Assembly: GCA_002269645.1 (NCBI GenBank)
Contig: NIVC01000240.1
Span: 505,517 to 569,516, forward strand
Length of the DNA stretch: 64,000 bases
Direction: 5' to 3'
Source of the DNA: Macrostomum lignano
Taxonomy: Eukaryota
A model generated the notes under the pieces. The model was not told where the DNA came from. It saw only the letters and a program-made list of their open reading frames with translations, and made no database searches. The translations under genes were made by a program, and so were the position numbers. This document shows, one piece after another, positions 1-64,000 of this stretch; positions within the stretch are counted from its first letter, which is position 1; each line of letters starts with the position of its first letter.

Positions 1-513
1 CATTCTCGCCTCTCATTGGCTGGCGCCCCCAGGAATTCGTAATATCCAATAAGCACCGATATGTACGCGCCCCGCAGGCGCCCCGATATGTACTTATTGA
101 TTTTGTATTCATCGATACGTACGAGTAGTTATTAACAATTAACAAAAAGTAGGCTAGTGAAAACTACTTATAGTAGTCTAAATTGCGTATATTTTCACAT
201 ATTGACGCATATTAAACATAAATATGAGCAGCAAAATAAGCAGCGCGGGCGCCGAGCGCCAATATCGATATGCGTATCCGGTTCCTGGGGGGCACCAGCC
301 AATGGGAGGCGAGGAGGTTTGACACCCACCTCACCTCCAAAATCATGCCAAACGGAAGTCCTTAGTAGTTATGTGCTCAACAGTCAGCGGAATGGGCAGC
401 ATTGCCGTCAGCGCTGGTTGTGGGACGATGTCGCCGAAGGCATAGCGACAGGATTCCCGCAGCCCCTCCATGCCAATAATATTTGTTTTATCCAACCCAT
501 CGCACCTGTACAG

Positions 514-3500
514 GTGGAGCACGAGCTCACGCTGTCTCTGCGCATACTCGGCCAGCTGGTCGACCGGCTTCAGGAGCAGCACCAGCCGCCTAGGCTGCGC
601 TTCGAATGGCCCGACTATCCTGGTCTGGTGCGCCTCCTCGGCCGGGCCTGCTGCCCGTCCGCTCCGGCCCTGGTTGAGCCGGCCTTTGCCGTGATGTGCC
701 GCCTGCCGCGCCTGCTAATGTCGCCCGTCACAGAGCCGCGCGGCGCTGAAAGCGGCTTCGCGTCGCTAACGCTGCAACTGCTGCCCTACCTGCTGCTGCA
801 CTATGACAATTCGCCGCAGCAAGCCAGAGACGCGGCCGCCAGGCTGGGCACCTTCGGCCAGGACAGCTGGCCAGATGCCACCAGCCAGCTTAGCGTGGTG
901 CTGGCGCAGTACAGCAGGAATTCCTTCACCCGCGATGCTGGGCAATGGTGCCGCTGCGTTTGCCGCTATCTGTGCGACGCTTTCCCCGGGCTGGGCCCGG
1001 CTCTGGTGCGCCAGGCTCTCGGTCAGCTGGAGGCCTGGCCAGCCGTGCTGCTGCCGCACTCGCAGGGCGCTCTGCACGCACTGTTGAGCAATGTTGATTT
1101 GACGGAGGAGGTGGCGAGGCCCTTGGTGCACATACTGACTAGGCAGATTGCCCACGGCTGCGGTGACACCATGCGACTGCATGCGGTACGGCTTCTGTGT
1201 GAACCTGCCTTGAGATCCTGACTATCCACTGAGATCTATTTTCCACCCTGAGATTCCCTCCTGTTATCCACTTTGAAATTCCCCTGTTATCTAATCTGGA
1301 ATTTCCCTGTCATCCAATCTCAAATTCCCCTGTTATCCAATTTGAAATTCCCCTGTTATCCAATTTGAAATTCCCCTGTTATCTAATCTCAAATTCCCCT
1401 GTTATCCAATCTCAAATTCCCCTGTTATCCAATCTCAAATTTCCCTGTTATACAACTTGAAATTCCCCTGTTATCCAATTTGAAATTCCCCTGTTATCCA
1501 ATCTCAAATTCCCCTGTTATCCAATCTCAAATTTCCCTGTTATCCAATTTGAAATTCCCCTGTTATCCAATCTCAAATTCCCCTGTTATCCAATTTGAAA
1601 TTCCCCTGTTATCTAATTTAAAATTTCCCTGTTAATCAGCATGAGTTTTAGACTCCAAGAGCCCGTAGAATCGCTCATTAACGATCGCCAAACAACAGTA
1701 GAAATTACCCAACCAGCTAGTATACCATTCCAAAATTCACTAAAAATAATCCACCTACCTGCAACCCAACACGCAGATTCTCAAGCACCTGGTGTTCAAG
1801 TCCAGCAGCGTGCCGCCCGCCTCGCACACGAAGCACCCGCTTGTGCTGCCGCTGGTCCCCCTGCCAGAGGCTGAGCCGCCGCGTCGCGAACTCCCAGGCC
1901 GAACTCTCAACTTCACCTTCGACGTTCGCTCGGAAGATCAAATTGGCGGTGCTGCTCAATCGGCTCAGCAGCAGCAGCAGCAGCATCATCCAGCTGCCGC
2001 AGCTTCCACAGCGTCTATGGCTTCGGCTGTGTCGGCACCGCCAGCCATCGGCGGCGGCGGAGGCGGCTCTCTGTCTTCCTCCGACAGCGGCAGCGGCGGC
2101 TGTGGTGAGAAGCGCTCTCTGGCTAGCGGAGGTGGCGGCGGCGGCGGTGGCAGCAGCAGCGGTGGCGGCGGCGGCACTAGCGGCGGCGATCGGCACCTGC
2201 CGCAGGTGCCCCGAGTTCGAATCCGGCTGGTTGCCCTGTGCGCCGGCTATTTTGGCGCCCGAGCCGGCCTGCCAAAGTCTCCATCGGTGAGTTGGGATTG
2301 CCGCGATTTGGTTTTTGTTTTGCATTCCCAGTTTTGTTTTGCCGATTTTCGCAGTGTGTATTTACTGATATGCTTTTCCTGATTCATTTAATACGAGGGC
2401 ATGGAAACAGGAGCAGGAAGACAGAGTAAGGGAGATAAAAGTGGATTTTTACAGTTTTCCAAGAAAGCAAAGAGTGACAGGCAGCCAGAGAAGAGAGAAA
2501 AACAGAGAGTGACAGACAGCCAGAGAAGAGAGAAAAACAGAGAGTGACAGGCAGCCAAAGAAGAGAGAAAAACAGAGAGTGACAGGCAACTAGAGAAGAG
2601 TGACAGACAGCCAGAGAAGAGTGAAAAACAGAGAGTGACAGACAGCCAGAGAAGAGAGAAAAACAGAGAGTGACAGGCAACTAGAGAAGAGTGACAGACA
2701 GCCAGAGAAGAGTGAAAAGAACAAAGAGTGACAGACAGCCAGAGAAGAGTGAAAAACAGAGAGTGACAGACAGCCAGAGAAGAGTGAAAAACAGAGAGTG
2801 ACAGACAGCCAGAGAAGAGTGAAAAACAGAGAGTGACAGGCACTAAGTTATCAGTGAAGTGCATTGAGTCACATTAATTGGCTGCAAGTGGACTTCAAGT
2901 GGACTTGTACTGCTATTAGTTAGAGCTGCTGCTAAGTTTAATTGGAACTAAAAGCTTATAAAAAGTGCATTTTGACTTGGCATAGGATCCGTTATTTACC
3001 AGCTTGTAAATATATATATATATATATATCTGCATCCTGAGCTGTTGTTAGCTTATGTTTCTACATGTATGTCGTTTCTCTGATGTGTACCAAAGCATAA
3101 TATAATTTTCCTAATGTTGTCCAACCCAAATTAGTTTAGTTTAGTTTAAAATTGATGTGCGCAACTTAATGCTAGTTTCAGTAAAAATACTAGCATATTA
3201 ATTAAAAAAGAAATATTTTGTACCTAGGTATTGCCGCTTGTCTTAGCATGTTTTGTTTAGAAATGCGAAATTATTAATTAATTATCTATAAGCATCTGGC
3301 AACCAACCCGCATGCACTCAACGCAACCAATTGCTGTGCCAATTCCAATTTTTAGGATGCCTACTGGCATAAGGTAAATCAACCATTGCCCGAACAGAAG
3401 ATGGTTGATCAAAACGATTTTCAAACTCCCCCCTCCCCTGCATTCATTTTGTTTCTGTCTGTGTGTGCTGTACGCATAGTGCAGTACAAGCAGTGCTTAT

Positions 3501-11235: not shown

Positions 11236-11468
11236 CTTGTGGCGCTAAATTGGCGCTACGCTCAGTGTAGGACCCTTGGCCCCCTGACAAAAAAAGTTTT
11301 TTGACCATGGTACTAACAACTGAAGGTACTAAAGATTATATTTTATTTATTTATACTTGGTAAAATATTCATTCTACTAATAGTAGTTTCATATTTTAAA
11401 AAAGTTGCTCACTATAAAATCTGCCTTAATCTGCTAACTCCTTAATATTAGATAAAGAGTTCCATATA

Positions 11469-12776
11469 CGAGGGATACTCCAAAAGTTTTGCAATTCAAC
11501 CACTTGCGCAAGTCGCACAATCTTCAAAACCAACTCTCTGTACAATAAACATGTACATAGTCACCACCTCAATTTTCAAGTTAATTCATACATATACGCC
11601 TGCTCAGCCCCCAGTCAAAGTCAGAGACTCCTTAACTGTACAGCTGCAGCCATGGAATTGAATCGTGAGCAGAATCGGCTACTAATTTGGTACTGCCACA
11701 AGCGAAAGCTCACGGCGCTTGAGACTCATGCCGAGCTACTGGCAACATTGGAGGCTCAAGCGCCGTCATATGCTACGGTTACACGCTGGTACCGCGAGTT
11801 CCAGGCCGGCAGGACCAGCTTTTCTGACGACCCCCGGCCCGGGAGACCTCCGACAGCAGTGACGGAGGAAAACATCGTTGCAGTGCAGGAGCTGATTCAT
11901 CAGGATCCGCGAATCACCACGGACATGCTAGCTATGAATGTCGGCATTGGATCGGCAGCGGTCGATACGATTCTACACGATCACCTGAGAGTCAGGAAGC
12001 TTTGTGCCCGATGGATACCCCACATCCTGACAGATGCTCAAAAACAGGCCCGCATGGAGTTCTGTCAGTTTCTCATCGATCGATATGAGCACGGGAGCCA
12101 TCAGCGCCGCTCTGAGGTCATCACTGGTGATGAGACGTTTCTGTATCATTTTGACGTCGAGACAAAGCGCAGCAGTGCAGAGTGGGTGCCGGAAGGTGGT
12201 CAACGACCCCTGAAAGCAAGGCGGTCCCGGTCCCAGGGCAAGCGGATGTTTGCCATCTTCTTCGACTCACAAGGCGTGGTGGCGATGGTGAAGCTGGAGG
12301 GTCAAGCTACAGTCACTGCTCGATGGTACACTGAAGAGTGCTTGCCAGTCGTGATCGACAGCGTGACCCAGAGGGCGCCAAGGACGGGAATGCGAGGGCG
12401 GAAGCTTCACCATGACAACGCCCCCGCCCACACGGCTGCTGCAACTCGAGCGTTCCTGGACCAAGAGGGCATTTCAACGCTACCACACCCGGCCTACTCA
12501 CCAGACCTCGCCCCCTGCGACTTCTGGCTCTTTCCAGAAATCAAAAAGTCGCTTAGGGGGCGCAGGTTTCAGTCCGACGAGGAGCTGGAGCAGGCGGCGA
12601 AGGAGGCGATTGACGGCATCCCAATTGAAGACTTCCAGGGCTTGATGAACAAGTGGCTCGGACGAGCGCACAAGTGTTTGCAGTTCCGGGGAGCCTACTT
12701 TGAAGGATTGTAATAGAAAAGTTTGGCAAAATTAACTTTAAATAGTCGAATTGCAAAACTTTTAGAGTATCCCTCG
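11469..12776 (+). mobile_element. Full-length mariner DNA transposon (1308 bp), probably irritans/Hsmar2-like
   Basis: TA|CGAGGGATACTCCAAAAGTTTTGCAATTC at the left and GAATTGCAAAACTTTAGAGTATCCCTCG|TA at the right: ~30-bp imperfect TIRs with TA TSDs at 11467-68 and 12777-78. Confidence 0.95.
11652..12713 (+). CDS. Mariner transposase, 353 aa, DD34D
   Basis: N-terminal HTH region; WIPHIL (WVPHEL motif); ITGDET; HHDNAPAH; YSPDLAPCD; 34 residues between the 2nd and 3rd Asp; uninterrupted ORF. Confidence 0.96.
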   Translation: MELNREQNRLLIWYCHKRKLTALETHAELLATLEAQAPSYATVTRWYREFQAGRTSFSDDPRPGRPPTAVTEENIVAVQELIHQDPRITTDMLAMNVGIGSAAVDTILHDHLRVRKLCARWIPHILTDAQKQARMEFCQFLIDRYEHGSHQRRSEVITGDETFLYHFDVETKRSSAEWVPEGGQRPLKARRSRSQGKRMFAIFFDSQGVVAMVKLEGQATVTARWYTEECLPVVIDSVTQRAPRTGMRGRKLHHDNAPAHTAAATRAFLDQEGISTLPHPAYSPDLAPCDFWLFPEIKKSLRGRRFQSDEELEQAAKEAIDGIPIEDFQGLMNKWLGRAHKCLQFRGAYFEGL

Positions 12777-34074: not shown

Positions 34075-37000
34075 GGGCCGCTGTACACTCGCTGCACCTG
34101 AGAGTCTACTGCACCTTGCGCAGTACTGCGAGTCCCAGAACGCTGAGCTGTGCTTAGGGGGCGACCTCAACGCACACCATAAGCACTGGGGCAGCAAAGA
34201 CACCAATACTAGAGGGGAGGAGCTTCTGGCCCTTATCTCTAATACAAATCTTATGCTCTGCAACCGCGGTAGCACTCCTACCTTTAACAATGGCAGATGA
34301 ACTGAGGTCCTCGATACCACACTCGTTACCCCAAGACTCTGACAGAGTTGAGGAGTGGAGAGTCTGGTCTGAGGTGCCCTCCCTGTCTGACCACTGCTTT
34401 ATCGCCTTTAACATCGCGGACACTAAACACCAGTCCTCGATCACTTGGAGGCGTAACATCCGCAACACTGATTGGGCAGCCTATAAGGCTACCCTTGATC
34501 TGCACCTGCAGGAACTCTTGGACTTACGTTCGATTGAGACCTGCGAGGATGTGGACCATGCGGCTGAGACGCTGACAGGTTGCATTATTGCAGCCTATGA
34601 AGCGGCCCGCCCTGTCCGTGCCTACAAAGGCAAGACCTCGGCGCCGTAGTGGAACCCGGAGCTGGGGAAACTCAGGCGGAAGGCCAAAAGCCTTCAGCGC
34701 CGTGCCATGAAGACCGGAAACCCGGAGGACATGGAGCTTTTCCGACAAGCCTCCCGCAACTTCAAATCTGAAGTGCGCAAGGCCAAGGAATGTAAATGGC
34801 GCCAATTCTGCAATGAGTTGGATCAAGACAGACCTACTTCTAGGCTTGTCAAGGCCCTTACAATGGACAAAATGTCCAAATTAGCCATGATCAGAAAAGA
34901 TGATGGCTCTCTTACTAAAGACCCTGAAGAAGTGCTTCAGCATATGCTCAACACATTCTTCCCGAGGGTACCCACTGCTAGATCGGAACCCTACCATTCG
35001 ATGGATGGAGCCATCCTAGCGGCGGGCATTATCACTGAAGATTTAATCGCTCATGCGGTCAGAACCTTCAAGCCCTTCAAATCTCCTGGACCTGATGGTA
35101 TCTACCCTGTTCTTCTTCGTGAAGCAGCCAAGATACCCTCGTTCTTGAGACTTACCCGCAATCTCATGCGGGCCTCTATCCAGCTGGGATACGTTCCCAA
35201 GTGCTGGACCGAAGCTCGAGTAGTCTTCATTCCCAAACCTGGGAAGGGTGACTACCAGAGCGTCAAGGCCTTTAGGCCAATTAGCTTAACGTCAGCAATG
35301 CTTAAGCTCACTGAGAGGCTTATTCTCTGGCGGCTGCTTTCTTGCGAGCTGACAGCAATGCCCCTCAGCAATAATCAGCACGCCTTCTGTACCGGGAGGT
35401 CGACTGACAGCGCCCTGCATGCGATAGTCGAGAAGATTGAACGGGCGGTACTGGGTGACGGTTACGCCCTGGCTCTTTTTCTCGACATTGTTGGCGCCTT
35501 CGACAACGTTATCTTTGAAGCGTTTCAGAGGGCCCTTCAAAACCGCAAAGCTCACGCTACCCTCATACGGTGGATCATGTACATGATCTCTAACCGTACG
35601 GTCACTGCCCAACTTCTTGGGCAAACTGCCTCCGCCAGAGTCTGTAAGGGTGGACCCCAAGGGGGAGTCCTCACCCCGACGCTCTGGAACCTGGTCATGG
35701 ACGCTCTTCTGGGCGACTCCCGACCTGATCCCGTCTTCAAAGTCGGGTATGCTGACGACACGTCACGGCCATTGTGGCAGGGCCATCCCCCAGCACGCTC
35801 AGGGATCTGATGCAGAGCTTTATCCGCAAAGCAGAATCCTAGGCCAATGACAACCGTCTGGAACTCCCTGAGCCCAAAACTGTTGCCATTATGTTCACCA
35901 GCAGAATACGCTGGAACATACGACCTCTGCAGTTTTACGGCAGAGATATTGCTTTCGCGCACCAGACCAGATGTCTCAGGGTCATACTTGACCACCGGCT
36001 CAACTGGTCCTTTCACGTGAAAGCAAAAGCCAAGCGTGCCTCAGCCATCCTGGCCCAGCTCCGACGAGCACTTGGCACTTCTTGGGGTCTATCCCCAAAG
36101 CGGCTTTGGTGGATCTACACTTCCGTAGTTAGACCTGCCATTACGTACGCCTCGGTTGTCTGGGTTAGCGCTACCCAGGTCAAAAGCTATGCAGATTTGC
36201 TCAACACGATCCAGGGCAGAGCGTGTAGGCTTATCTGCAACGCCACCAGGTCCACACCCTTTGCCGGCATGGGGGCCTTCCTTAATCTACCGCCTCTCGA
36301 CCTCTTCGTCAGGGGTGAGGCGGCTAGAACGACGCGGCGTTTACTTGACGCCGGTGTCAAATTCCTTTACATGAGGGCACCTGCTAAGCGGAACCTTGTC
36401 CCGCATAGCGACCTGTGCCTCAACATTCTCAACGAATGTCAGGCCAATCGCGTCTTCACCGATGGCATTGCCTCAACGCTCAACCTGAGACAACGCTACT
36501 CCGTAGCTATCGACTCGCGCGATACCATCAATGACCACTGGAACCCTGGTGAGCTTCATTGCTACACCGACGGTTCTAAGCAGTCAGCCAACACCGGTTT
36601 TGGTGTTGGAATCTTCCTGAACGGGAGGGTCATCGCAACCCACGCTCAGTACACTAGGGTCAACTCCAGTGTCTTCCAAAATGAAGTTCTCGCCATCAGC
36701 TTCTCGCCACTGGCGTAACCGGCAAGAATATCATTTTCCATTCGGACAGCCAAGCTGCCTTGCACGCCATCAGTGGCTGTAGTACCAATTCTGCTACAGT
36801 CCTCGACTGTATCAAACTCCTCAACATGTTGGGCTCCACCAACAAAATCACCCTTAAGTGGGTTCTGGGGCATATGGGGATCCGAGGAAATTAATTGGCT
36901 GACGCCCTTGCAAAAGTTGGTGCCTCCGGCTCCTCTCTCGGTCCCAAACCCTTTGTCCCGATTCCTGTCATCGACTCGCGCATCAAAGCGTGGATTAGGA

Positions 37001-44530: not shown

Positions 44531-52679
<8,149 letters not shown>

Positions 52680-53520
52680 GCGTGCTGCGATTAGCTGTCG
52701 CCGAACTGTCTGTCAACAGTTCGAGCCGATTGTTACAAAGAAACTGTTGTTGAATAGGGTCAGTCTTCTGGCGCAACAATTATGTGCAAATGCGGCATGT
52801 GCCGAAGCGGAGGAGTAGAGCAGAGCTCAGATTTGAGTAGTTCGGGGGGGGCTTGCCGGCCTGCCTTTTCTTATAAATCAGATGGTGTTGGAGGTGGCCG
52901 GTCGTCGCAGAAAAATAGGGGGGGGGGGGGGCAGGGAGAGACCGGAGCGAAGGTCTGGGTGCAGATTGTGCTGGCAATGCTGTCAGAGTGTAGGCACAAA
53001 AAGCAGCACCCACCCCAACAAAGCTTGCAGCAGAATTCTCTGTTCTGTGCCCCGAGAAGCAACAGGCGTGTGCAGAGAGGCGAAGCCATTCTAATAAATG
53101 CTTTAACCTGTAGCCCTGCGCTCCGGCAGACTTTTACACTCGCGCCTCCACCACCGACCTACACTGCAGGCCCGTGGCTTGGATTTTGGCAAACTGAGAA
53201 TATATATAATGTGTGTGTGTGTGTTTTGTATGTGACACGTGTGCGTCCGGCAGGCCTGCGAATTGAGCAAAGCAGCTCTCTGAATCCGTATTGTATGAGA
53301 ATGCATAAATAAGCCATTAAGTCACAGCGGCTGCTGAAGGATCAAATAAAAATTTCTTAAAGTCTGTTTAAAGGTAGCTTTTGTAGTGTTTTGCGATCCA
53401 AACTCTGACTGTGGCGTACTGGCCGACTTTCCTATTCACCAGCCGGGGCACATGAAGTTCACACGAAGGGCGTTTTTACGAGCTAACTGCAAAAAATCTG
53501 TGTCAAAACTAGTGCAACCT

Positions 53521-55042: not shown

Positions 55043-56265
55043 TGTAGTTTAGGACCTAGTACTTAGGACCTAGTTTAGTCACTATAGGTAATTTTTAGCA
55101 GTAGGTATACCAAGCCATTTTTCCGCCCGTCGAACTACCAAAATGGGGGAAACCCCTGACCATTTTTTGCTGCGCCGGAACGGAGCAACGCAGGCACACG
55201 AAATTCAAGAACATGATGTGTTCCTTATTACCAGTCCTCAGCTGTAATCAAGGAACAATCACTTCTAGCTCTGTAGCTAGGCAACCCAGTAATCAAATGA
55301 AGGTATGTATTACCTTGAGTCCTGTCTCTGAGAGCTCTTCCGTGTTCTGTTATTCTCGGACTTCCTTTGAACCTCGAACTTCGTTAGACGTCTATGTTCG
55401 TAACCAGGTCCGCGTTCCTTTACGTCCACTGAAGTCGTTTCCGGCCGGTATCTGTAGTGCGGACCAATGGGAAGCTTCCAAATCAACAATGGGTACCCTG
55501 CGCCAATCTGCGGTTTAATATAAGCCTACTCCTTCTAGCAGTGCCTCCATGCACTCTAGGTATAGCTCCGGAAACCACTGATAGTCTTCTAAGATCTATC
55601 AGGGGCAGTCCTTCTGGAGACTGCAACCAGCAGAGTCTAAACAGACTCAGGAGTCTCAACAGACTCAAATAAACTCAAGTCTCAATAGACTTGAGCGAGA
55701 CGTCTCAACCAACAGGCGCAAATGAGTAAGGCTTACCGCAAGAACTCGTCCACGACGCGAGTTTCTTCAGGAAGGCTTCGCTAGAGCTTCCTCTTCGGAG
55801 CTTCTCTCTCTTGGAGATTTCTTGGCTCCGGGTCCGTTCCGGACCACTTGTATTTATAGGCGTTCAGACCTCTCTCGAGGTCGTACATCACTGTCTTCGC
55901 AAATGTCAAAGGGTCACGATTCGGTGGCTGTCAAGCATGACAGGGTAGAAAGTTGCGCAACTAGTCTACTGTAAAAGCGCATGATTGGTTACCGTAGCTG
56001 GTAGACTTTGATTGGTTCATCCGGGTGCAACCCGAGTGCAAACCAAATGATGACTTGAAGGTGGGGTTTGAATTGACAGTTGTTGGTCGCACGTGATTGG
56101 GTGATTTCTAAAATTAGCATGCTCGAGATTTCTCTCTTTCTATTGGTTAATTCGAATATATGTATGGTTCAGCGCATATCCTTATACATGCTCCTCAAAT
56201 TACTACTATTTAAGTAGTACGTTAACAATTTTAAATAACTTTTCTGGGAGATATAATACTCTACA
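55043..56265 (-). repeat. 3' LTR (~1.2 kb); right boundary firm, left boundary tentative
   Basis: On the - strand it begins TGTAG at 56265, 3 nt after the PPT. A CTACA end fits at 55043; alternatives are ~55272 and ~55453. It contains CCAAT boxes, a TATA box and ATTAAA. Confidence 0.7.
55851..56150 (-). promoter_or_regulatory. U3 promoter of the LTR: TATA box (CCTATAAATA, 55860-55851) plus four CCAAT boxes
   Basis: Plus-strand ATTGG near 55984, 56011, 56096 and 56143, upstream (on -) of TATAAATA. Confidence 0.7.
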
Positions 56266-56268
56266 AAA

Positions 56269-56476: not shown

Positions 56477-57115
56477 TCAGCCGAACCCGATTTTGAGCAC
56501 GGCGGATATCTGCTGCGCTGTTCGCGCAGCCAGACATGCCACCGCCCAGAATGTCGGCTGAAAGCGTGTGAAGCGCGGTTCCTCTGTGCGCTCGAGTATC
56601 ATCAGGTAGGCGTCAATACTCGTGAGTCCTGGGTGCTCGCGAGCCAGGCTCCTGGAAATTCCAAGGACGTGACGCCATGACTCCTGATGCCGGTGCGGCC
56701 ACGGCCACGACCGGACGGCGATGGACAATTGCTCGAAGGTCAAGCTGTCCGGCTCCGCCAACGTCAACTCTGGCACTGGTGTTATTGTCGCCAACATCAG
56801 CGCCGTCGAATGGTTGACAGGAGCTAGACATTCGGTGCAGATCTCTATATCTCTTGCACCGTACCTTCGGAGACAGCTTGCACAGACCCAATGTCGGTTG
56901 GAACACACCTGAACATGGGGCTGTTCGCCGCATACCACACAGGTAGCCCGCGCGCGACGGCAGACCGGGCAGGTAGATAGCATGGTAACATTGCCATCCA
57001 CCTGCTGCGCCATGGCGTCGCAGGAGACACACACGCGGTGTCCCCACTCACACGTCGGGATCATATAGTCCCGCGTCTCGAGACAGCAGGGGCATACGTC
57101 GTTGTTCTCGGCCAT
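56477..57115 (-). CDS. Accessory ORF B, 212 aa: two tandem RING-HC-like domains plus a helical C-terminal domain
   Basis: C-x2-C-x10-C-x3-H-x2-C-x2-C-x16-C-x2-C (CPVCR) and C-x2-C-x8-C-x3-H-x2-C-x2-C-x11-C-x2-C; intact ORF; CAG|ATG start. Confidence 0.85.
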   Translation of the reverse strand: MAENNDVCPCCLETRDYMIPTCEWGHRVCVSCDAMAQQVDGNVTMLSTCPVCRRARATCVVCGEQPHVQVCSNRHWVCASCLRRYGARDIEICTECLAPVNHSTALMLATITPVPELTLAEPDSLTFEQLSIAVRSWPWPHRHQESWRHVLGISRSLAREHPGLTSIDAYLMILERTEEPRFTRFQPTFWAVACLAARTAQQISAVLKIGFG

Positions 57116-57169: not shown

Positions 57170-57838
57170 CTACTGTGTATACCGTAAAAGCCATATGAAA
57201 TAACTACGTGACAAAATTAGTCTTTTTAGCGCGTGGCAATATATGTGCAATGTCCAGTGAAACGCGTGATGGGCATGCAAAAATTGTCGTAGATGTCGTT
57301 CTATATCCAGGGGTAACATATGACGCAATATTCCTTGATTGTTATGTGCGTACAGTAGTAATTCATTGCGTGACCGTCGAGCGAAACGAGGTACTGGCCA
57401 AAACTCTAGCAACTGTTCGATACGTATTGCGGGTAGTGTTCGAATATTATCAACATGTAAGCATCGATTGGCGTCGGGCTTGATGCGACACCACTTCTTG
57501 AAGGTGCTGTCCTTCGGCATACTGTTACACATAGGGCATCCTATGATGCCCCTACTAGCGGTTCGTTTCAAGCATTGCATGCAAATAAAATGACTTTGAT
57601 TACAGTATTGAAAGGTGCGCCACGAATAACAATAGGCGCACTGCGTCAGACTACTCCTACATAGGGGGCAGCTTTGCCAGTGTTGGATATGATGCGCGTC
57701 ACACAAGCAAGTGCCGCATATGCGATGATTATTTATACAAATGGTTGGTGGTTTTTTATGCAGGTCATCTTCCAAACAGACAGGGCATTCATAGAGTTGC
57801 CGTGGCTGGGTCGCCAGTCTAGACTGTGCATTGCCCAT
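57170..57838 (-). CDS. Accessory ORF A, 222 aa from MGNAQS: putative myristoylated double-RING protein
   Basis: First ATG in strong context (ACTATGG). C-x2-C-x12-C-x3-H-x2-C-x2-C-x12-C-x2-C (CPLCR) and C-x2-C-x8-C-x3-H-x2-C-x2-C-x11-C-x2-C. The ORF track extends it to a GTG at 57889. Confidence 0.85.
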   Translation of the reverse strand: MGNAQSRLATQPRQLYECPVCLEDDLHKKPPTICINNHRICGTCLCDAHHIQHWQSCPLCRSSLTQCAYCYSWRTFQYCNQSHFICMQCLKRTASRGIIGCPMCNSMPKDSTFKKWCRIKPDANRCLHVDNIRTLPAIRIEQLLEFWPVPRFARRSRNELLLYAHNNQGILRHMLPLDIERHLRQFLHAHHAFHWTLHIYCHALKRLILSRSYFIWLLRYTQ

Positions 57839-57984: not shown

Positions 57985-60900
57985 TTAACGAGGTCGCAGA
58001 TTATAGCCGTGCGGCTGGCTCTCGTTCGTTGTTTGAGTCTCCTCGTGCTTCGTTGCGATGTGGCGGTTTGTCGAACGCGTGCGGTCGGCATTGTCAAGTG
58101 ACGGTAGAAATGTCGCCGTGTCAGTGTTGATCCTTTTCAATCGATGAATGTGCACGTAGAATTGGTGCTGATGAGGATCTTGCACATTGGCCAGGCGTGC
58201 CGTTGTCGGTAACGTTAGTTGGACCACTCGATATGGTCCTTTGTACTTCTGTGCGTGTTTGTGCGTCTGTTGTGGCGGATAGTGCAGGTAGACGATGTCG
58301 CCGGCTGTCAGAGTTGTCGATCTCGTGTCGGTGCCGGTGGTCAGAGCCACCTGATTGTCGATGTTGTGCTTGGCTACTTTCCATGCGAGGTGTAGTTGCG
58401 TGACGAACTTTTGAATGGACGTCGGGACTTCCACATATTGCGATGGTAGTAGTTGCTGTGCCAATAGGTTTGGCGGCTGGAAGTCTCGCCCAAACATTAG
58501 AAAGAATGGCGTATTATCCGTTGATCGATGAATAGCGCTGTTGTAGGCCATTGTTACTGCTTGCAGATAGATGATCCAGTCGTCCGGTTGTTGATGCGCG
58601 AAGTGTGTAATCATCTCGTGTAGGTTGCGGTGAAACCTTTCAACCATGTTCGCCTTCGGATTGTAGGTCGATGTGTAGATCTGCGTGATGTTGAGGATCT
58701 TCACCACTTGCTGAAAGAGTTGAGACGTAAACTGCGATCCATTGTCCGATGTGAGGTTCTTTGGCGTACCGTACTTGCAGATGATGTCGTTGAAGAAACC
58801 CATTGCCACTGTCTGAGCTGTGATGTCCGGTATTGGTATGGCAATAGCAAACTTTGAGAAAATGTCCAAGGCTGTTAGGATGTAGGTGTAGGCTATGCCA
58901 TGGAGACAGCTCGGTGGCAGCGGTCCGGTGATGTCGATGCTGAGACAGTCCATAGTCGTTGACTTCGGTATCGATTGTAGCTGTGGTTTTTGTCGTCGTC
59001 CTGTCTTTGATGCTGCGCATGAGTGGCAGTTATTGCAATACTGCTTGATGTCGCCATGCATGCTTGGCCAAAAGTAGTATTGCTCCACTCTTGCAATGGT
59101 TTTGGCTGCCGACAGGTGTCCAGCGAGTGGGTTGTCGTGCAGCTCGTTGAGAATGGCCTGCCTAAACGAATATGGCATGTAGATTTTAGGTTTGTTGTCA
59201 CTCATCCAGTAGAGTCGTGTCTTGTTGATTGTTAAATGTTGTCGCTGCTTGCGCAGGAATTTTCGTTCCACGGGGCTGAGCTTGATGTCCTTGTCGTTGT
59301 TTTTAACTGCTATGTAGAAGTTGTCGTGTTCAGTCTCATCCACCAATTCCTTGATGTTAGGGATTGGATGAATGGCGTTGACTTCGTAGGTTCTTGACAG
59401 AGCGTCCGCCGCCTTGTTAGTAATTCCTGGTTTGTAGACGAGCTTGTAGTTGTAGTCCTGGATCTTGAGTGTCATCCTGATGAGTCGGTTGTTTGTTTGT
59501 CCTTTTGTAGTTACGACGTAGGTCAGCGGTGCGTGATCTGTGCGTACTATCGTCGGTATTGGAGAACCATAGATGTAGTAATGGAACTGTCGTAGGGCGA
59601 ACAAGACTCCTAGTAGTTCTCGTTCCGTAGCGGACCATTTTGTCTCATTCGGTTTAAGTGCTCGACTGACGTAGGCTATAGGTCGTTCCTTTTTGTCTCC
59701 AGTTTCCTGTAGTAGGACTGCTCCGAGTCCCGTTCCTGAGGCGTCTGTCTCGATGATGAAGGGTTTGTCGAAGTCCGGATGCTGTAGCAGTGCGTCTGAT
59801 GTCAGTTGTCGTTTGATTTCGTCAAAACTTTCTTGTTGCTTTTGTGTCCAATTATCCTGCTTCCATTTGTCGAACTTGAGCAGGTCGTACAGCGGCTTTG
59901 CTGTCTTCGCGAAGTTGGGTAAGAACTTTCGGAAGTATTGCGCTAGTCCAAGAAATGATTGGACCTTCGTTATGCTAGTTGGTGTAGGAAACTTCTTTAC
60001 TTTCTCCACATTGTCTGGGTCCGGTGAGATTCCTTTGGCTGTCACTTGGTGTCCTAGGTAACGTACGTTGTCTCGGAAGAATTTGCATTTCGTCGGTTGT
60101 AGCTTAAGACCTTGGCGTTGAATGAGCGCTAGGGCCTTCTCCGTAGCTTCATAGAGTCGTTGGAAGTCTTCTCCGTAGGCCAAGATGTCGTCGACATAGT
60201 GCAGCAGGTTTGTGCATCCTGCAAGCATGTATGCCGTTAGTCGGCTCATTGTTGCTGGGCTGTTGCTGAGTCCCATTGGCGACCGGTTGTACTCGTAGAC
60301 TTGTCCATTGTAGGTTTTGAAAGCCGTGTACTGTCGTGATTCTTTCTCGATTTCAATTTGCCAAAATCCATGACGTAGGTCGAACACCGTGAACAATTTT
60401 GCTGTGTTGAGCTTTGCTAGTAGCTCGGAGATCTTTGGTAGGCTTTGCTGATCCGTCGGTATGTACTTGTTCAGCAGTCTGAAGTCGCATACAAGTCGTC
60501 TTTCGTTAGTCTCCTTCTTTTGTACCAGTAGGCACGGTGAGGAATAGGCTGAAATTGCTTTGCTGATGATGCCGTGCTTTAGCATTTTATCGATAATTTC
60601 ATCAAAGTGTTGTTGCAGATGTTTGGCAATCGGGTACGGCTTGCATTGAATTGGTTCCGTGTGCGGTAGAAGCTTGATTTCTTGTTTAATGTCTTTAGCG
60701 CGTCCGATGTCGTAATCATGATGGCAGAAGGCTTCGTTGTACTTCCACAACAGTTGTCGAACTTTCTTCTTTTGCTGTTCCGTGATCGGGCTGTCGTCCA
60801 AGTTGATTTTCTTTTGAAATTCTTCTTCTGTTAGTCGTGGAGTCGTGTGCTCAATCAGCATAACTGATGCTTGAGTGTTGAGATGACCGATGCACATTCC

Positions 60901-62907
60901 TTGTCGTAGATGAACCATTTCCGCGTTCGGGTTGAAGATTTGTACTGGCAGCTGCTTATCTTTTGCAACCAGCACTAGTGCCGTAGGCATCATAATTTGG
61001 TGTTTAGCCGTGACTCTTCTGTTTGGGTCGAATATCATTGCTTCCTCCGTTGCGTTAGTTGCCTTTGCCTTTATCCAGCAGGCGCTCTCCGGTTGGATGA
61101 TGACATCTTGTTGCAATGTTACTTTTGGTAGTACTCGGATCTGGTTGATCAATGGTTGTTCTACCGAGTCGATCTTGAACGTTTGCTTATTGAAGTCGAA
61201 GGTCAATGGTAGTCGAAGCTGCTTGAACGTGTCGATGCCAACAATAACGTCCTGGTTTGGGAGTCTGTCGATGACGTACGTTGGAACTGTCAAATGTTTA
61301 TTAGCGATTCTTAAATCAATGTCGGCTTTTCCCAGAATGTTTAGCGAATGTCCTCCTGCTCCTGCAACTGCGATTGTTGCTGGCCGTAGAGCAAGTCGTA
61401 GCTTGTTGCACAGTTGTTTTGATATAACTGTAATGGAGCTGCCGGAGTCCAGTAACGCTCGACATGGTAGATTGTTGATTATAACTTGAGCCATTGCTTT
61501 GCCAATTTCGGCGTGTAGAGTACATACGTAGTTTTCTGGCCATTTTGGGTCTTGCTGTTCTGCTTGATAGTTAGGTGGTTGTATTCTTGGTGCCGTTGGT
61601 GTTGTCGGAATCGATGGATATAGCCGCGTTGCTAGTGTCGGTTGCCCTTGAACCTCACGATGTGCAGTTTCTGTTAGTTCTAAACTGTTGTCGCCTTCCG
61701 TTGTCGTTCTTTGCATTATGGCATTCACTGTCTTCTTAGCTCTTGGACAAGTTTGACTGAAGCACCGTACGATTGACGAAATGATGAAGATTGCCGTGGC
61801 AATCCACACAATGCAAGCACCGTAGAAGATGAATCCTTGATAGAGACTGCCTCTTCCATTGAGCAGCTCCCAGAAGCTGTTTGTCCAAAATGATTTGATG
61901 GCGCTGTCCATTGAAACAAGGACGGGAAATCTTCCTGTCCCGGTTCCTTTGTCCTTTCTTGTGAACAGCTGGTGAATCATCTTGCGTTGGGTGATGAACG
62001 CTTGCAAGAAGTCGTTGATCGTCCATCCTGGTGTTATTTCGTCAAGTTGGATATCGGCGAATGGCGTATACTTTGTTCTGTTGAATCGGATTTTCAAATC
62101 CTCCATGTCGTAGTTTTCGTCGACGATTACTTCCGGTTCTGTGATGTTTGCTGTCGTTCCAGTTGTTTTGATGACGTGTAGTGCATTGTCCAGTTGATAG
62201 TAGTTCGCTGCCGTGGTGCAAGGTCTCGGTATTGCGGTGCCAACGATGATGTTGTGTACCGTGTCCAAGAATCCCTGAATTCGTTTTCCTTCGTAGAACG
62301 CTTCAATCCTTGGCTTGTCGTAGCAGGTTGTTGACGTGTTTGACGGCAAGATGTTGAAGTGCTGTATCGGCGTGCACTTGTATATCAACAGATGCTCGTA
62401 TATTGGAACTGCCAAAACGTTCGTCATTCCGGTGATTTTACGAAAAGTCATCGTAGGGTTGACATAGTAGTTTTGTCTGGCATAATTTAAGTTGATTGCG
62501 TGCATTTTGCAAGTTAGCTGGACCAGTGTTCGATGCAAGTGGTTTAACTGGTTGTGTAGATTGTGATCCAAAGCCGTTATCTTTGCTGACAGTAGTCGGT
62601 TTGACACTAGTTTGGGACGTTCGATGTCTCGTCGTCGTCTGTTCTGTTGTTCCTGCTGTTGATACGTTCCGTTGATGATCGCCAGAAAGGTTTGTTTGTC
62701 GTCTTCTTTTACGTAGACTGGTATCTCTTGTTCCGAGATGAATAGTGTCTTGTCTGTATCCTTGCATTTCAGTTTTTGCTCGACTGGTTTCTTTTGAAAC
62801 GTCAGTGCCAAGTCTCCTGACTTTGCCAAAAACGTATTTGACAGTAGACCTCCTTCAACTGTGTGATACTTTTGAAGCTTGCAGTCAATTTCCGGCTCAA
62901 CTTCCAC
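57985..62907 (-). CDS. 1640-aa open frame: C-terminal part of an env-like glycoprotein, TM helix, aspartic protease, RT, RNase H and integrase
   Basis: RRRR furin site (62629-40); NPT...C motif; TM at ~61836-61768; LDSGS (61441-49); YVDD (60187-98); TDASGTGLGAVL; H-x6-H...C-x2-C zinc finger; D-D-E (SIDITG, SDNG, VERFHR); GPY; terminal YNLRPR. Confidence 0.95.
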   Translation of the reverse strand: MEVEPEIDCKLQKYHTVEGGLLSNTFLAKSGDLALTFQKKPVEQKLKCKDTDKTLFISEQEIPVYVKEDDKQTFLAIINGTYQQQEQQNRRRRDIERPKLVSNRLLSAKITALDHNLHNQLNHLHRTLVQLTCKMHAINLNYARQNYYVNPTMTFRKITGMTNVLAVPIYEHLLIYKCTPIQHFNILPSNTSTTCYDKPRIEAFYEGKRIQGFLDTVHNIIVGTAIPRPCTTAANYYQLDNALHVIKTTGTTANITEPEVIVDENYDMEDLKIRFNRTKYTPFADIQLDEITPGWTINDFLQAFITQRKMIHQLFTRKDKGTGTGRFPVLVSMDSAIKSFWTNSFWELLNGRGSLYQGFIFYGACIVWIATAIFIISSIVRCFSQTCPRAKKTVNAIMQRTTTEGDNSLELTETAHREVQGQPTLATRLYPSIPTTPTAPRIQPPNYQAEQQDPKWPENYVCTLHAEIGKAMAQVIINNLPCRALLDSGSSITVISKQLCNKLRLALRPATIAVAGAGGHSLNILGKADIDLRIANKHLTVPTYVIDRLPNQDVIVGIDTFKQLRLPLTFDFNKQTFKIDSVEQPLINQIRVLPKVTLQQDVIIQPESACWIKAKATNATEEAMIFDPNRRVTAKHQIMMPTALVLVAKDKQLPVQIFNPNAEMVHLRQGMCIGHLNTQASVMLIEHTTPRLTEEEFQKKINLDDSPITEQQKKKVRQLLWKYNEAFCHHDYDIGRAKDIKQEIKLLPHTEPIQCKPYPIAKHLQQHFDEIIDKMLKHGIISKAISAYSSPCLLVQKKETNERRLVCDFRLLNKYIPTDQQSLPKISELLAKLNTAKLFTVFDLRHGFWQIEIEKESRQYTAFKTYNGQVYEYNRSPMGLSNSPATMSRLTAYMLAGCTNLLHYVDDILAYGEDFQRLYEATEKALALIQRQGLKLQPTKCKFFRDNVRYLGHQVTAKGISPDPDNVEKVKKFPTPTSITKVQSFLGLAQYFRKFLPNFAKTAKPLYDLLKFDKWKQDNWTQKQQESFDEIKRQLTSDALLQHPDFDKPFIIETDASGTGLGAVLLQETGDKKERPIAYVSRALKPNETKWSATERELLGVLFALRQFHYYIYGSPIPTIVRTDHAPLTYVVTTKGQTNNRLIRMTLKIQDYNYKLVYKPGITNKAADALSRTYEVNAIHPIPNIKELVDETEHDNFYIAVKNNDKDIKLSPVERKFLRKQRQHLTINKTRLYWMSDNKPKIYMPYSFRQAILNELHDNPLAGHLSAAKTIARVEQYYFWPSMHGDIKQYCNNCHSCAASKTGRRQKPQLQSIPKSTTMDCLSIDITGPLPPSCLHGIAYTYILTALDIFSKFAIAIPIPDITAQTVAMGFFNDIICKYGTPKNLTSDNGSQFTSQLFQQVVKILNITQIYTSTYNPKANMVERFHRNLHEMITHFAHQQPDDWIIYLQAVTMAYNSAIHRSTDNTPFFLMFGRDFQPPNLLAQQLLPSQYVEVPTSIQKFVTQLHLAWKVAKHNIDNQVALTTGTDTRSTTLTAGDIVYLHYPPQQTHKHAQKYKGPYRVVQLTLPTTARLANVQDPHQHQFYVHIHRLKRINTDTATFLPSLDNADRTRSTNRHIATKHEETQTTNESQPHGYNLRPR

Positions 62908-63745
62908 GCGAAGAAGTATTGTCGTGACTTAGATGGTTCTTCATATCGTGAGTCGCCTCTGCGTATAATTTGCCATCGATAGTCTTGATGATATGTTGGA
63001 CTCAACGGTAAGCTGTATAGTTCCTCATTCCGCAGTATCGGCGTTGGACACCATCCTTTGCTGTATCGGCAGTCGCTTAATTGCAGTTGTAGCGACTCCA
63101 TTTTTTCAAAAGGATTGTGGTAGAATGGAATATTCCTGATTAGGTAACTGTTTCGTGTCATGTAGTTAGTCCATGCTTCCGAAAAGTGTACATATCGTCC
63201 GTTTGCTGAGTTCTTCGTTCGGTAAAGTTGTGCCTCCCCCACTTTCTCATCCGGTTCTAGCTGACCATCCTTTGAGAACAGTGTTTGGTTCCATTGTAGA
63301 CATTCAGCGTGCGACACATGTAGTTCGTGTTGCCAAAATCGAATTCTGTTCCACTGTCCTCGCCAAACTTTTTCCACTAGGTGCTTGTCTCTGAAGCACA
63401 CTATTCCGTGTTGTCGATGCTTTTGATGTTAGCCTTGTAGAGGTCGAGTGTAATCTTCTTTGGCTTCGTTTGGTTTGTCTTGAAGTAGCTGCATTTGATG
63501 TCGGTTGGTATCTTGTAGATCATCGGTTGGATATGCGCATCCGTTGGACATATCATTGGTTTCTCCATTGCTGTTGCTTTGGTGACTACTGCCGTCAGTA
63601 GTATTATGATGATCCAGAATATCCAGAATCGCCATTTTCTGAACGTTGCCGTTGTCTTTGCTGGCATTGGCTGCGGCTGCCATTCGTTATCTTCTGCGTC
63701 CGCATCGTATTCTTCCTCTTGTTCCATTGGCGTTTCCGAGCGCAA
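62908..63745 (-). pseudogene. N-terminal half of the env-like glycoprotein (signal sequence and Cys-rich ectodomain), broken by frameshifts
   Basis: FRKWRFWIFWIIIILLTAVVTKATA|MEKPMICP signal-like stretch, ICP...KC, VCF and CRYSKGWCP; frame changes at ~63401 and ~63030-62910. Confidence 0.75.
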
Positions 63746-64000
63746 GGCATCCGATTCGTTCCGCTGCTTGTCGTCTTCATCATTTTCTTCCTTGCTTTCT
63801 TCGATGTTGTAGTTGTGTCACTCCATTGTCGCGGTACCTCACTTCGGCCTTGTAGTCGACGTTTGAATGTAGGCTTCACCATTTCGTTTATATCGGATCT
63901 CGTAGCATTGATCGCTGTCGGAGCTTAGATTTCTTTCTTCCATTCCTTTGTGCCTTCCGTCTTCATGTGCTTTGTCGACGCTTGGTTGTCATCAGCGTCT

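Follow-up and report, generated by a model that had tools for sequence, protein, structure and literature searches.

Late-domain motifs in the tail of a gB-type envelope protein of a Ty3/gypsy retroelement from Macrostomum lignano

The window analyzed here is a 64,000-nucleotide stretch of the Macrostomum lignano genome (contig NIVC01000240.1, positions 505,517 to 569,516), and it carries on its minus strand a young Gag-Env-Pol retrotransposon of the Ty3/gypsy type, whose envelope protein (Env) is of the herpesvirus glycoprotein B (gB) type. In the tail of this Env, window positions 61567-61623 (minus strand) encode, upon translation, the 19 residues LYPSIPTTPTAPRIQPPNY, in which the motifs LYPSI, PTAP and PPNY follow one another. 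The comparisons described below indicate that the three short motifs of this gB-type Env tail have been selected for and are not a product of chance. We predict with good confidence that they bind in the manner of ligands of the ESCRT pathway (endosomal sorting complexes that are required for transport). The most likely explanation, with a probability of about 0.6, is budding with the assistance of ESCRT, for which the Env tail would supply late domains that are missing from Gag.

Results

The motif cluster and its conservation in the genome

The preliminary description of this DNA had reported three late-domain motifs within 19 residues of the Env tail, in the interval between the transmembrane (TM) helix and the protease, and both the translation and the coordinates confirm it. 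The trio lies inside an open frame of 1647 residues (57985-62928), with a hydrophobic helix at 61762-61836 on one side and the DSG of the protease at 61441-61449 on the other. The assignment of LYPSI to the LYPx(n)L class had to be narrowed: as the motif ends in Ile, it fits the YPx(L/I) form and not the strict one.

When the 82-residue tail was shuffled 20,000 times, all three classes never appeared together (0/20,000) and PTAP plus YPxI did so once (1/20,000). No three-class cluster was found in 51,698 residues of background frames. Because the motif patterns were defined post hoc, once the sequence had been seen, the weight of the argument rests on the tests in further families and on the set of 84 outside tails analyzed in the next section. 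The rival reading at stake is that of chance matches in a disordered linker rich in Pro and Thr, copied along with a young element. The motifs are indeed short and the tail is proline-rich, the odds of a single motif are 0.3-8% per local tail, and most copies of the element are 97-100% alike. Against this stand the shuffles and the background frames, the swap of motif order between lineages, and an enrichment in distant relatives that holds both under local shuffling and without the motif-rich clades. We regard chance as already largely refuted and give it next to no credence.

Variation within the family was followed in 24 distinct DNA haplotypes of the tail (86 locus records, many of them fetched twice). 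An amino-acid change is seen at 1 of 10 core motif codons, whereas the linker has such changes at 29 of its 58 codons (Fisher p 0.035, calculated on rows that are related to each other), and synonymous variation is present at 6 of the 10 core codons. The residue before YPSI is either L or M. None of the 11 codons of the junction at the end of the tail shows an amino-acid change, and this KWPENYVCTL junction is the likely, predicted region of protease cleavage.

A broader comparison covered seven lineages of the genome, which were retrieved with the window protein and Pfam PF24664 as queries. Their ectodomains are 61-63% identical to that of the window in two lineages and 23-24% in four, and the tails, at 20-38% identity across the lineages, diverge far faster than the ectodomain. 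An [LIM]YPx[IL] motif is found in the tail of 6/7 lineages and P(T/S)AP in that of 5/7; their order, YPxI and then PTAP in the window family, is reversed in four other lineages. Neither of the two, P(T/S)AP or YPx(I/L), occurs outside the tail in the examined polyprotein frames, Gag included (one of these frames is only a 247-residue fragment). Two lineages that lack PPxY in the tail have PPPY or PPAY in the spacer between Gag and Env, shortly before the internal signal, and this spacer would be the other cytosolic juxtamembrane segment. Since wide sharing in the genome is limited to YPx(I/L) and P(T/S)AP, the cluster of all three motifs is special to the window family.

PPxY sites in the spacer were seen at residue 590 of L069 and at residue 121 of the long frame of L074, and also in the relatives P0015, P0016, P0062 and P0069.

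Enrichment in the tails of distant relatives

Distant relatives were collected with a profile built from the ectodomain without the tail. It matched 791 proteins at E 0.001 or better, of which the best 150 were listed; word-index homolog searches gave one match each, and the relatives come from the profile search. Among 152 proteins, 88 gave a helix plus a tail and 64 had no usable TM and tail. Four of the 88 were dropped, namely P0001 and P0002 (two earlier hits) and two tails of under 30 residues, so that 84 tails were scored. The tail borders were set automatically, and the tails designated 'end' may belong to cut contigs.

P(T/S)AP is present in 11 of the 84 tails (shuffle mean 0.96), [LIMV]YPx[LI] in 11 (0.52), LYPxL in 7 (0.12) and PPxY in 11 (1.87), and 25 tails contain a motif of any class (3.28). 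Counts this high were reached in 0/2000 global and 0/1000 local shuffles. Per 1000 residues there are 3.3 motifs in the tails versus 0.3 in the remainder of these proteins, and when words of four and five letters were ranked without bias, LYPxL, YPxL and PTAP came out on top. The extended form P(T/S)APP occurs in 6 tails (shuffle mean 0.12), and two motif classes occur together in 8. After removal of two motif-rich clades (16 rows), 13 of the 68 tails are positive versus 2.75 expected (0/2000 shuffles), with P(T/S)AP in 5 (3/2000), YPxL in 3 (13/2000) and PPxY in 8 (0/2000). The named hosts of motif-bearing proteins are Macrostomum lignano and Caenorhabditis tropicalis (2 of the 20 looked up). 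The preliminary description had proposed to judge the motifs by their conservation relative to the surrounding linker, and the rarity of change at the core codons, the order swap and this roughly tenfold enrichment in distant tails all speak for them.

The same tails bear on the possibility that YPSI is a plain YxxPhi signal for AP-2 endocytosis, with the proline-rich stretch binding SH3 or WW proteins unrelated to ESCRT. YPSI formally matches YxxPhi, and the EIAV-type motif (EIAV, equine infectious anemia virus) was first tied to clathrin-dependent sorting (PMC3383448; this and all other sources are cited from the part available to us). However, YxxPhi without Pro at position +1 is not enriched (38/84 versus 36.4 expected), whereas YPxPhi is (16 versus 4.3 expected), and letter permutations of YPxL score at most 3, save for a near-identical pattern with the hydrophobic classes swapped. 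We consider an AP-2 signal highly unlikely.

AP-2, dileucine and NPxY readings of the tails were all rejected, dileucine being found in 8 tails versus 9.1 expected, NPxY in 0, and YxxPhi without Pro being unenriched.

Host proteins and the carrier of the motifs

The host genome contains three copies of the TSG101 UEV exon. The host UEV keeps Y68, N69, M95, P139 and V141, which we take to be residues of the pocket. Host ALIX aligns with the human structure over 706 residues and retains the Phe of the YPxL site (presumably the equivalent of F676); its nearest database protein is from Macrostomum lignano (99%).

The preliminary description had suggested that the element may bud from membranes with late domains carried by a glycoprotein tail or p6-like spacer. 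The p6 of HIV sits directly before the protease. The segment considered here also directly precedes the protease, and most motifs are in the protease-proximal half of the tail. It could be a p6-like spacer of Gag, displaced from the nucleocapsid-protease interval of an env-less ancestor, with a function tied to the processing of Pol or Gag. The control came from env-less families of the host (95/100 loci in 23 families, from which one env family and eight with under 60 residues of open frame were left out). None of the 14 families used has a motif in the 115 residues before the protease or in 3,498 residues of upstream open frame (a small control, with a shuffle mean of 0.18), and the segment for this reason behaves as an Env tail and not as a p6-like spacer. 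Furthermore, the conserved junction has the motifs on its Env side, and several frames with motifs stop soon after the tail with no protease (some of these may be cut contigs). Hence, of the two suggested carriers, the Env tail is supported by the sequences and the p6-like spacer is not; a displaced spacer is quite unlikely.

The element and its surroundings

A 651-base region of the element has a 92-100% match at 40/40 scored places in the genome. Sister copies have single open frames of 2,460-2,535 residues, in which Gag with its CCHC knuckle is followed by the acidic spacer, then by the ectodomain with a hydrophobic segment on either side, and last by the tail and Pol, and they are bounded by identical or near-identical long terminal repeats (LTRs). 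The order of the Pol domains (protease, reverse transcriptase (RT), RNase H, integrase) is of the Ty3/gypsy type. The nearest database protein to the polyprotein is from Macrostomum lignano (95%). Gag is absent from the window copy because the contig ends there. Alignment of the window copy with a sister copy shows single-base gaps at six places, two of which fall in env (near 62900 and 63420); the gaps may be real or assembly errors. Contigs from four runs, the RNA nature of which is a guess, span the coding region with no joint inside, and they carry no weight either way. The coordinates of all features are given in Table 1.

The ectodomain matches Pfam PF24664 at E 4e-5, which is below the cut-off. 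A sister ectodomain that is 63% identical to that of the window was modeled (mean predicted local distance difference test score 62.5); the Foldseek top hits of the model were all herpes gB, with E 1.5e-18 for herpes simplex virus 1 gB and a TM-score of only 0.24. By this modeling, the Env ectodomain is of the gB type; hydropathy places it between two hydrophobic segments.

Table 1. Features of the window on the element and around it
Feature	Position	Strand	Remarks
LYPSI	61609-61623	-	ALIX-type YPx(L/I) motif
PTAP	61588-61599	-	TSG101-type motif
PPNY	61567-61578	-	Nedd4/WW-type PPxY motif; P, P and Y fixed, x = N/T/I/G
Env tail, 82 residues	61516-61761	-	predicted to be cytosolic; ends at the invariant KWPENYVCTL junction
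Env transmembrane anchor	61762-61836	-	hydropathy of 2.4-2.7 (three sister polyproteins)
gB-type (class III) Env ectodomain	61837-63568	-	RRRR at 62629-62640; frame breaks near 62900 and 63420
Predicted internal signal/anchor segment, Gag-Env boundary	63569-63637	-	basic residues just before; putative role
Acidic Gag-Env spacer	63638-64000	-	four single-base gaps relative to a sister copy
Pol: protease, RT, RNase H, integrase	57985-61515	-	same frame as the Env tail
Accessory RING-finger open reading frame (ORF) 1	57170-57838	-	starts MGNAQS; Sina_RING E 0.009, below cut-off
Accessory RING-finger ORF 2	56477-57115	-	Sina_RING E 0.001, below cut-off
3' LTR, 1054 bp	55214-56267	-	100% identity with a sister copy's 5' LTR
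EF-hand plus Rab-type GTPase gene	50646-52712	-	
RT fragment	34650-35810	+	
Mariner transposase	11430-12713	+	
Furry/MOR2 C-terminal exon	136-1221	+	

The start of RING ORF 1, MGNAQS (MGNALS in the sister subfamily), is of the MGxxxS myristoylation type and was not seen in the two lineages with about 60% identity. The atlas leads for it, all scoring under 0.9, are large-DNA-virus proteins with a RING finger. If bound to the membrane next to a PPxY-bearing Env, a RING protein could feed the same ubiquitin/ESCRT route. On the 3' side of pol, other Gag-Env-Pol lineages have a different ORF that is not of the RING type (L121, about 3-596, and L124, about 1-765, both minus strand). In lineage L118 the Gag-Env spacer is very short and the copy studied stops after the protease, and the relative P0032 (2741 residues) has two aspartic-protease domains downstream of Env. 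A tandem pair of elements with one common LTR is present at G000:C669:1-22621 (L036-L038).

Discussion

In the budding that we propose, the internal signal and the stop-transfer helix would thread the ectodomain alone into the lumen of the endoplasmic reticulum, leaving Gag anchored on one side of it and the tail plus Pol on the other, both in the cytosol. As Gag and tail-Pol would both be tethered to the membrane, assembly could be membrane-bound without a myristoylated matrix domain. The tail would recruit host ALIX, TSG101 and a Nedd4-family WW-HECT ligase, with Env trimers offering several copies of the motifs at the bud neck, and ESCRT-III would sever the neck and free an enveloped particle. 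The viral protease would later cut near NYVCTL, and the motifs would stay on Env. The bud site could be the plasma membrane or multivesicular bodies, both of which are compatible with the data.

The motifs could instead serve turnover, which is the main rival explanation. Cellular membrane cargo uses such motifs for lysosomal sorting, and those of the tail might bind ESCRT and Nedd4 in order to route surplus Env or Env-Pol into multivesicular bodies and to lysosomal destruction. Because one polyprotein makes Gag, Env and Pol in a 1:1:1 ratio, excess fusogen and enzymes would need to be removed, and Gag-Env-Pol is indeed a single open frame, of about 2,450-2,500 residues, in the sister copies. 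The membrane-adjacent lysines and the RING ORFs fit ubiquitin-dependent sorting, and the conservation and enrichment data are explained equally well. However, Gag has no late motif in the examined polyproteins, and an enveloped particle would then have no other evident scission signal. Furthermore, P(T/S)APP and LYPxL are the forms used by viruses (PMC8402826). Turnover and budding are compatible with each other as roles of the motifs, and we find turnover as the explanation unlikely.

Several observations weigh against budding through the Env tail or against parts of it. The majority of the outside tails (59/84) are motif-free, one 18-row clade wholly so, and many relatives would thus manage without late motifs or rely on signals of another kind. 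On the tree, the rows with motifs are clustered (17 changes, of which at least 10 are forced, versus 24.6 in shuffled data), so that the 25 positive rows represent fewer than 25 independent events; this is a quick tree only, with two proteins with short ectodomains left out. Among the lineages of the genome, L118 (G000:C103) has no late motif at all, PPAP stands in 5/5 fetched copies of L121, and single copies have PNAP (L071) or PPAP (L085). PPxY is the least secure class: it occurs in the tail of 1/7 lineages, that of the window, and its decoys PPxL, PPxS and PxYP reach counts of 8, 7 and 6, uncorrected for residue frequency. On the side of the host, His replaces Y63 and Val replaces F142 in the TSG101 UEV. 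The cytosolic topology of the tail is predicted from the in-frame Pol and from two hydrophobic segments that were identified by hydropathy alone. Finally, we infer binding, budding and particle release from sequence; lysosomal sorting uses the same motifs, and sequence cannot tell the one from the other.

It is about an even bet that flatworms, nematodes and other invertebrates harbor, in their Gag-Env-Pol retroelements, budding viruses with a design of their own. In this design, a single membrane-threaded polyprotein would anchor Gag and Pol at the cytosolic face, a class III fusogen and not Gag or matrix would recruit ESCRT, and late domains would have been repeatedly gained, swapped and moved between two cytosolic juxtamembrane segments. 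Late domains on a fusion protein are in an unusual place, and their recurrence in Env tails is sequence evidence that such elements still make, or recently made, membrane-wrapped particles, and it bears on cell-to-cell and horizontal spread in invertebrates. The patchy distribution of the motifs could separate budding from intracellular lineages, and short peptides with named host partners allow a direct test in a tractable laboratory flatworm.

Comparison with known systems

Chary and Hayashi (eLife 2026, PMC13524379) have described GAG-ENV-POL elements with a gB-type Env from nematodes, bryozoans and flatworms. The element type is therefore already known, and our question concerns the motifs in the Env tail. 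One published element, Platyhelminthes_Rhabditophora_Mlig_errantivirus_2 (PMC13524379), resembles the element described here in gene order, in its gB-type Env and in forming a young family of many copies, and its 12-nt primer-binding site is identical to that of the window family. Its listed LTR of 863 bp matches the 862-866 bp of the sister subfamily, to which the window subfamily, with its 1054-bp LTR, is about 90% identical in DNA. Judged by primer-binding site, LTR length and layout, the window family is apparently the published Mlig_errantivirus_2 family. The catalogue, in its available part, treats ectodomains only, whereas our subject is motifs of the tail; it is silent on cell exit, and the available main text has 0 occurrences of 'ESCRT', 'late domain', 'cytoplasmic', 'budding' and 'RING'. 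The accessible parts of PMC12801592 and PMC5408684 contain nothing relevant to such tail motifs. Our literature searches, with a coverage that lacked most of the subscription literature including Sacco 2022, did not return any report that these Env tails contain late domains. Sacco 2022 is said to have been the first to describe Gag-Env-Pol elements of nematodes, and the motifs may be mentioned there.

The terminal Ile of LYPSI is reportedly an accepted variant, as Vincent et al. 2003, going by the title, described a YPXL/I motif of Aspergillus PacC that is bound by PalA/ALIX; PacC is a cellular transcription factor, whereas the tail described here is that of a viral-type Env. Bluetongue virus NS3 is a membrane protein with a PSAP motif. 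It provides a precedent for late domains on a non-capsid carrier (PMC4452911), but NS3 is small, non-structural and serves the egress of a reovirus without an envelope, whereas the carrier here is a fusogen within a polyprotein.

The late domains of retroviral Gag proteins are PTAP and YPXnL in HIV-1 p6, PSAP, LYPAL and PPPY in murine leukemia virus (MLV), and YPxL in EIAV p9; they are position-independent, and MLV Gag carries all three classes; for Gag and matrix proteins, the classes, their multiplicity and their freedom of position are textbook knowledge (PMC8402826). As far as that source goes, the motifs of the window share with the retroviral late domains the three classes, their clustering, their multiplicity and their independence of position. 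They differ in that the retroviral late domains are in Gag, whereas those described here, whose activity is predicted only, are in the fusion-glycoprotein tail of a Ty3/gypsy element whose Gag has none. A further comparison is with gypsy and ZAM of Drosophila, which are likewise Env-carrying Ty3/gypsy elements with a non-myristoylated Gag (PMC3383448). ZAM uses endosomal and exosomal routes, and this 2012 review, in its available part, described ESCRT use by errantiviruses as not known. In gypsy and ZAM, however, Env is of the F type and encoded in a separate 3' ORF, and it is in Gag that an EIAV-like motif has been suggested (PMC3383448).

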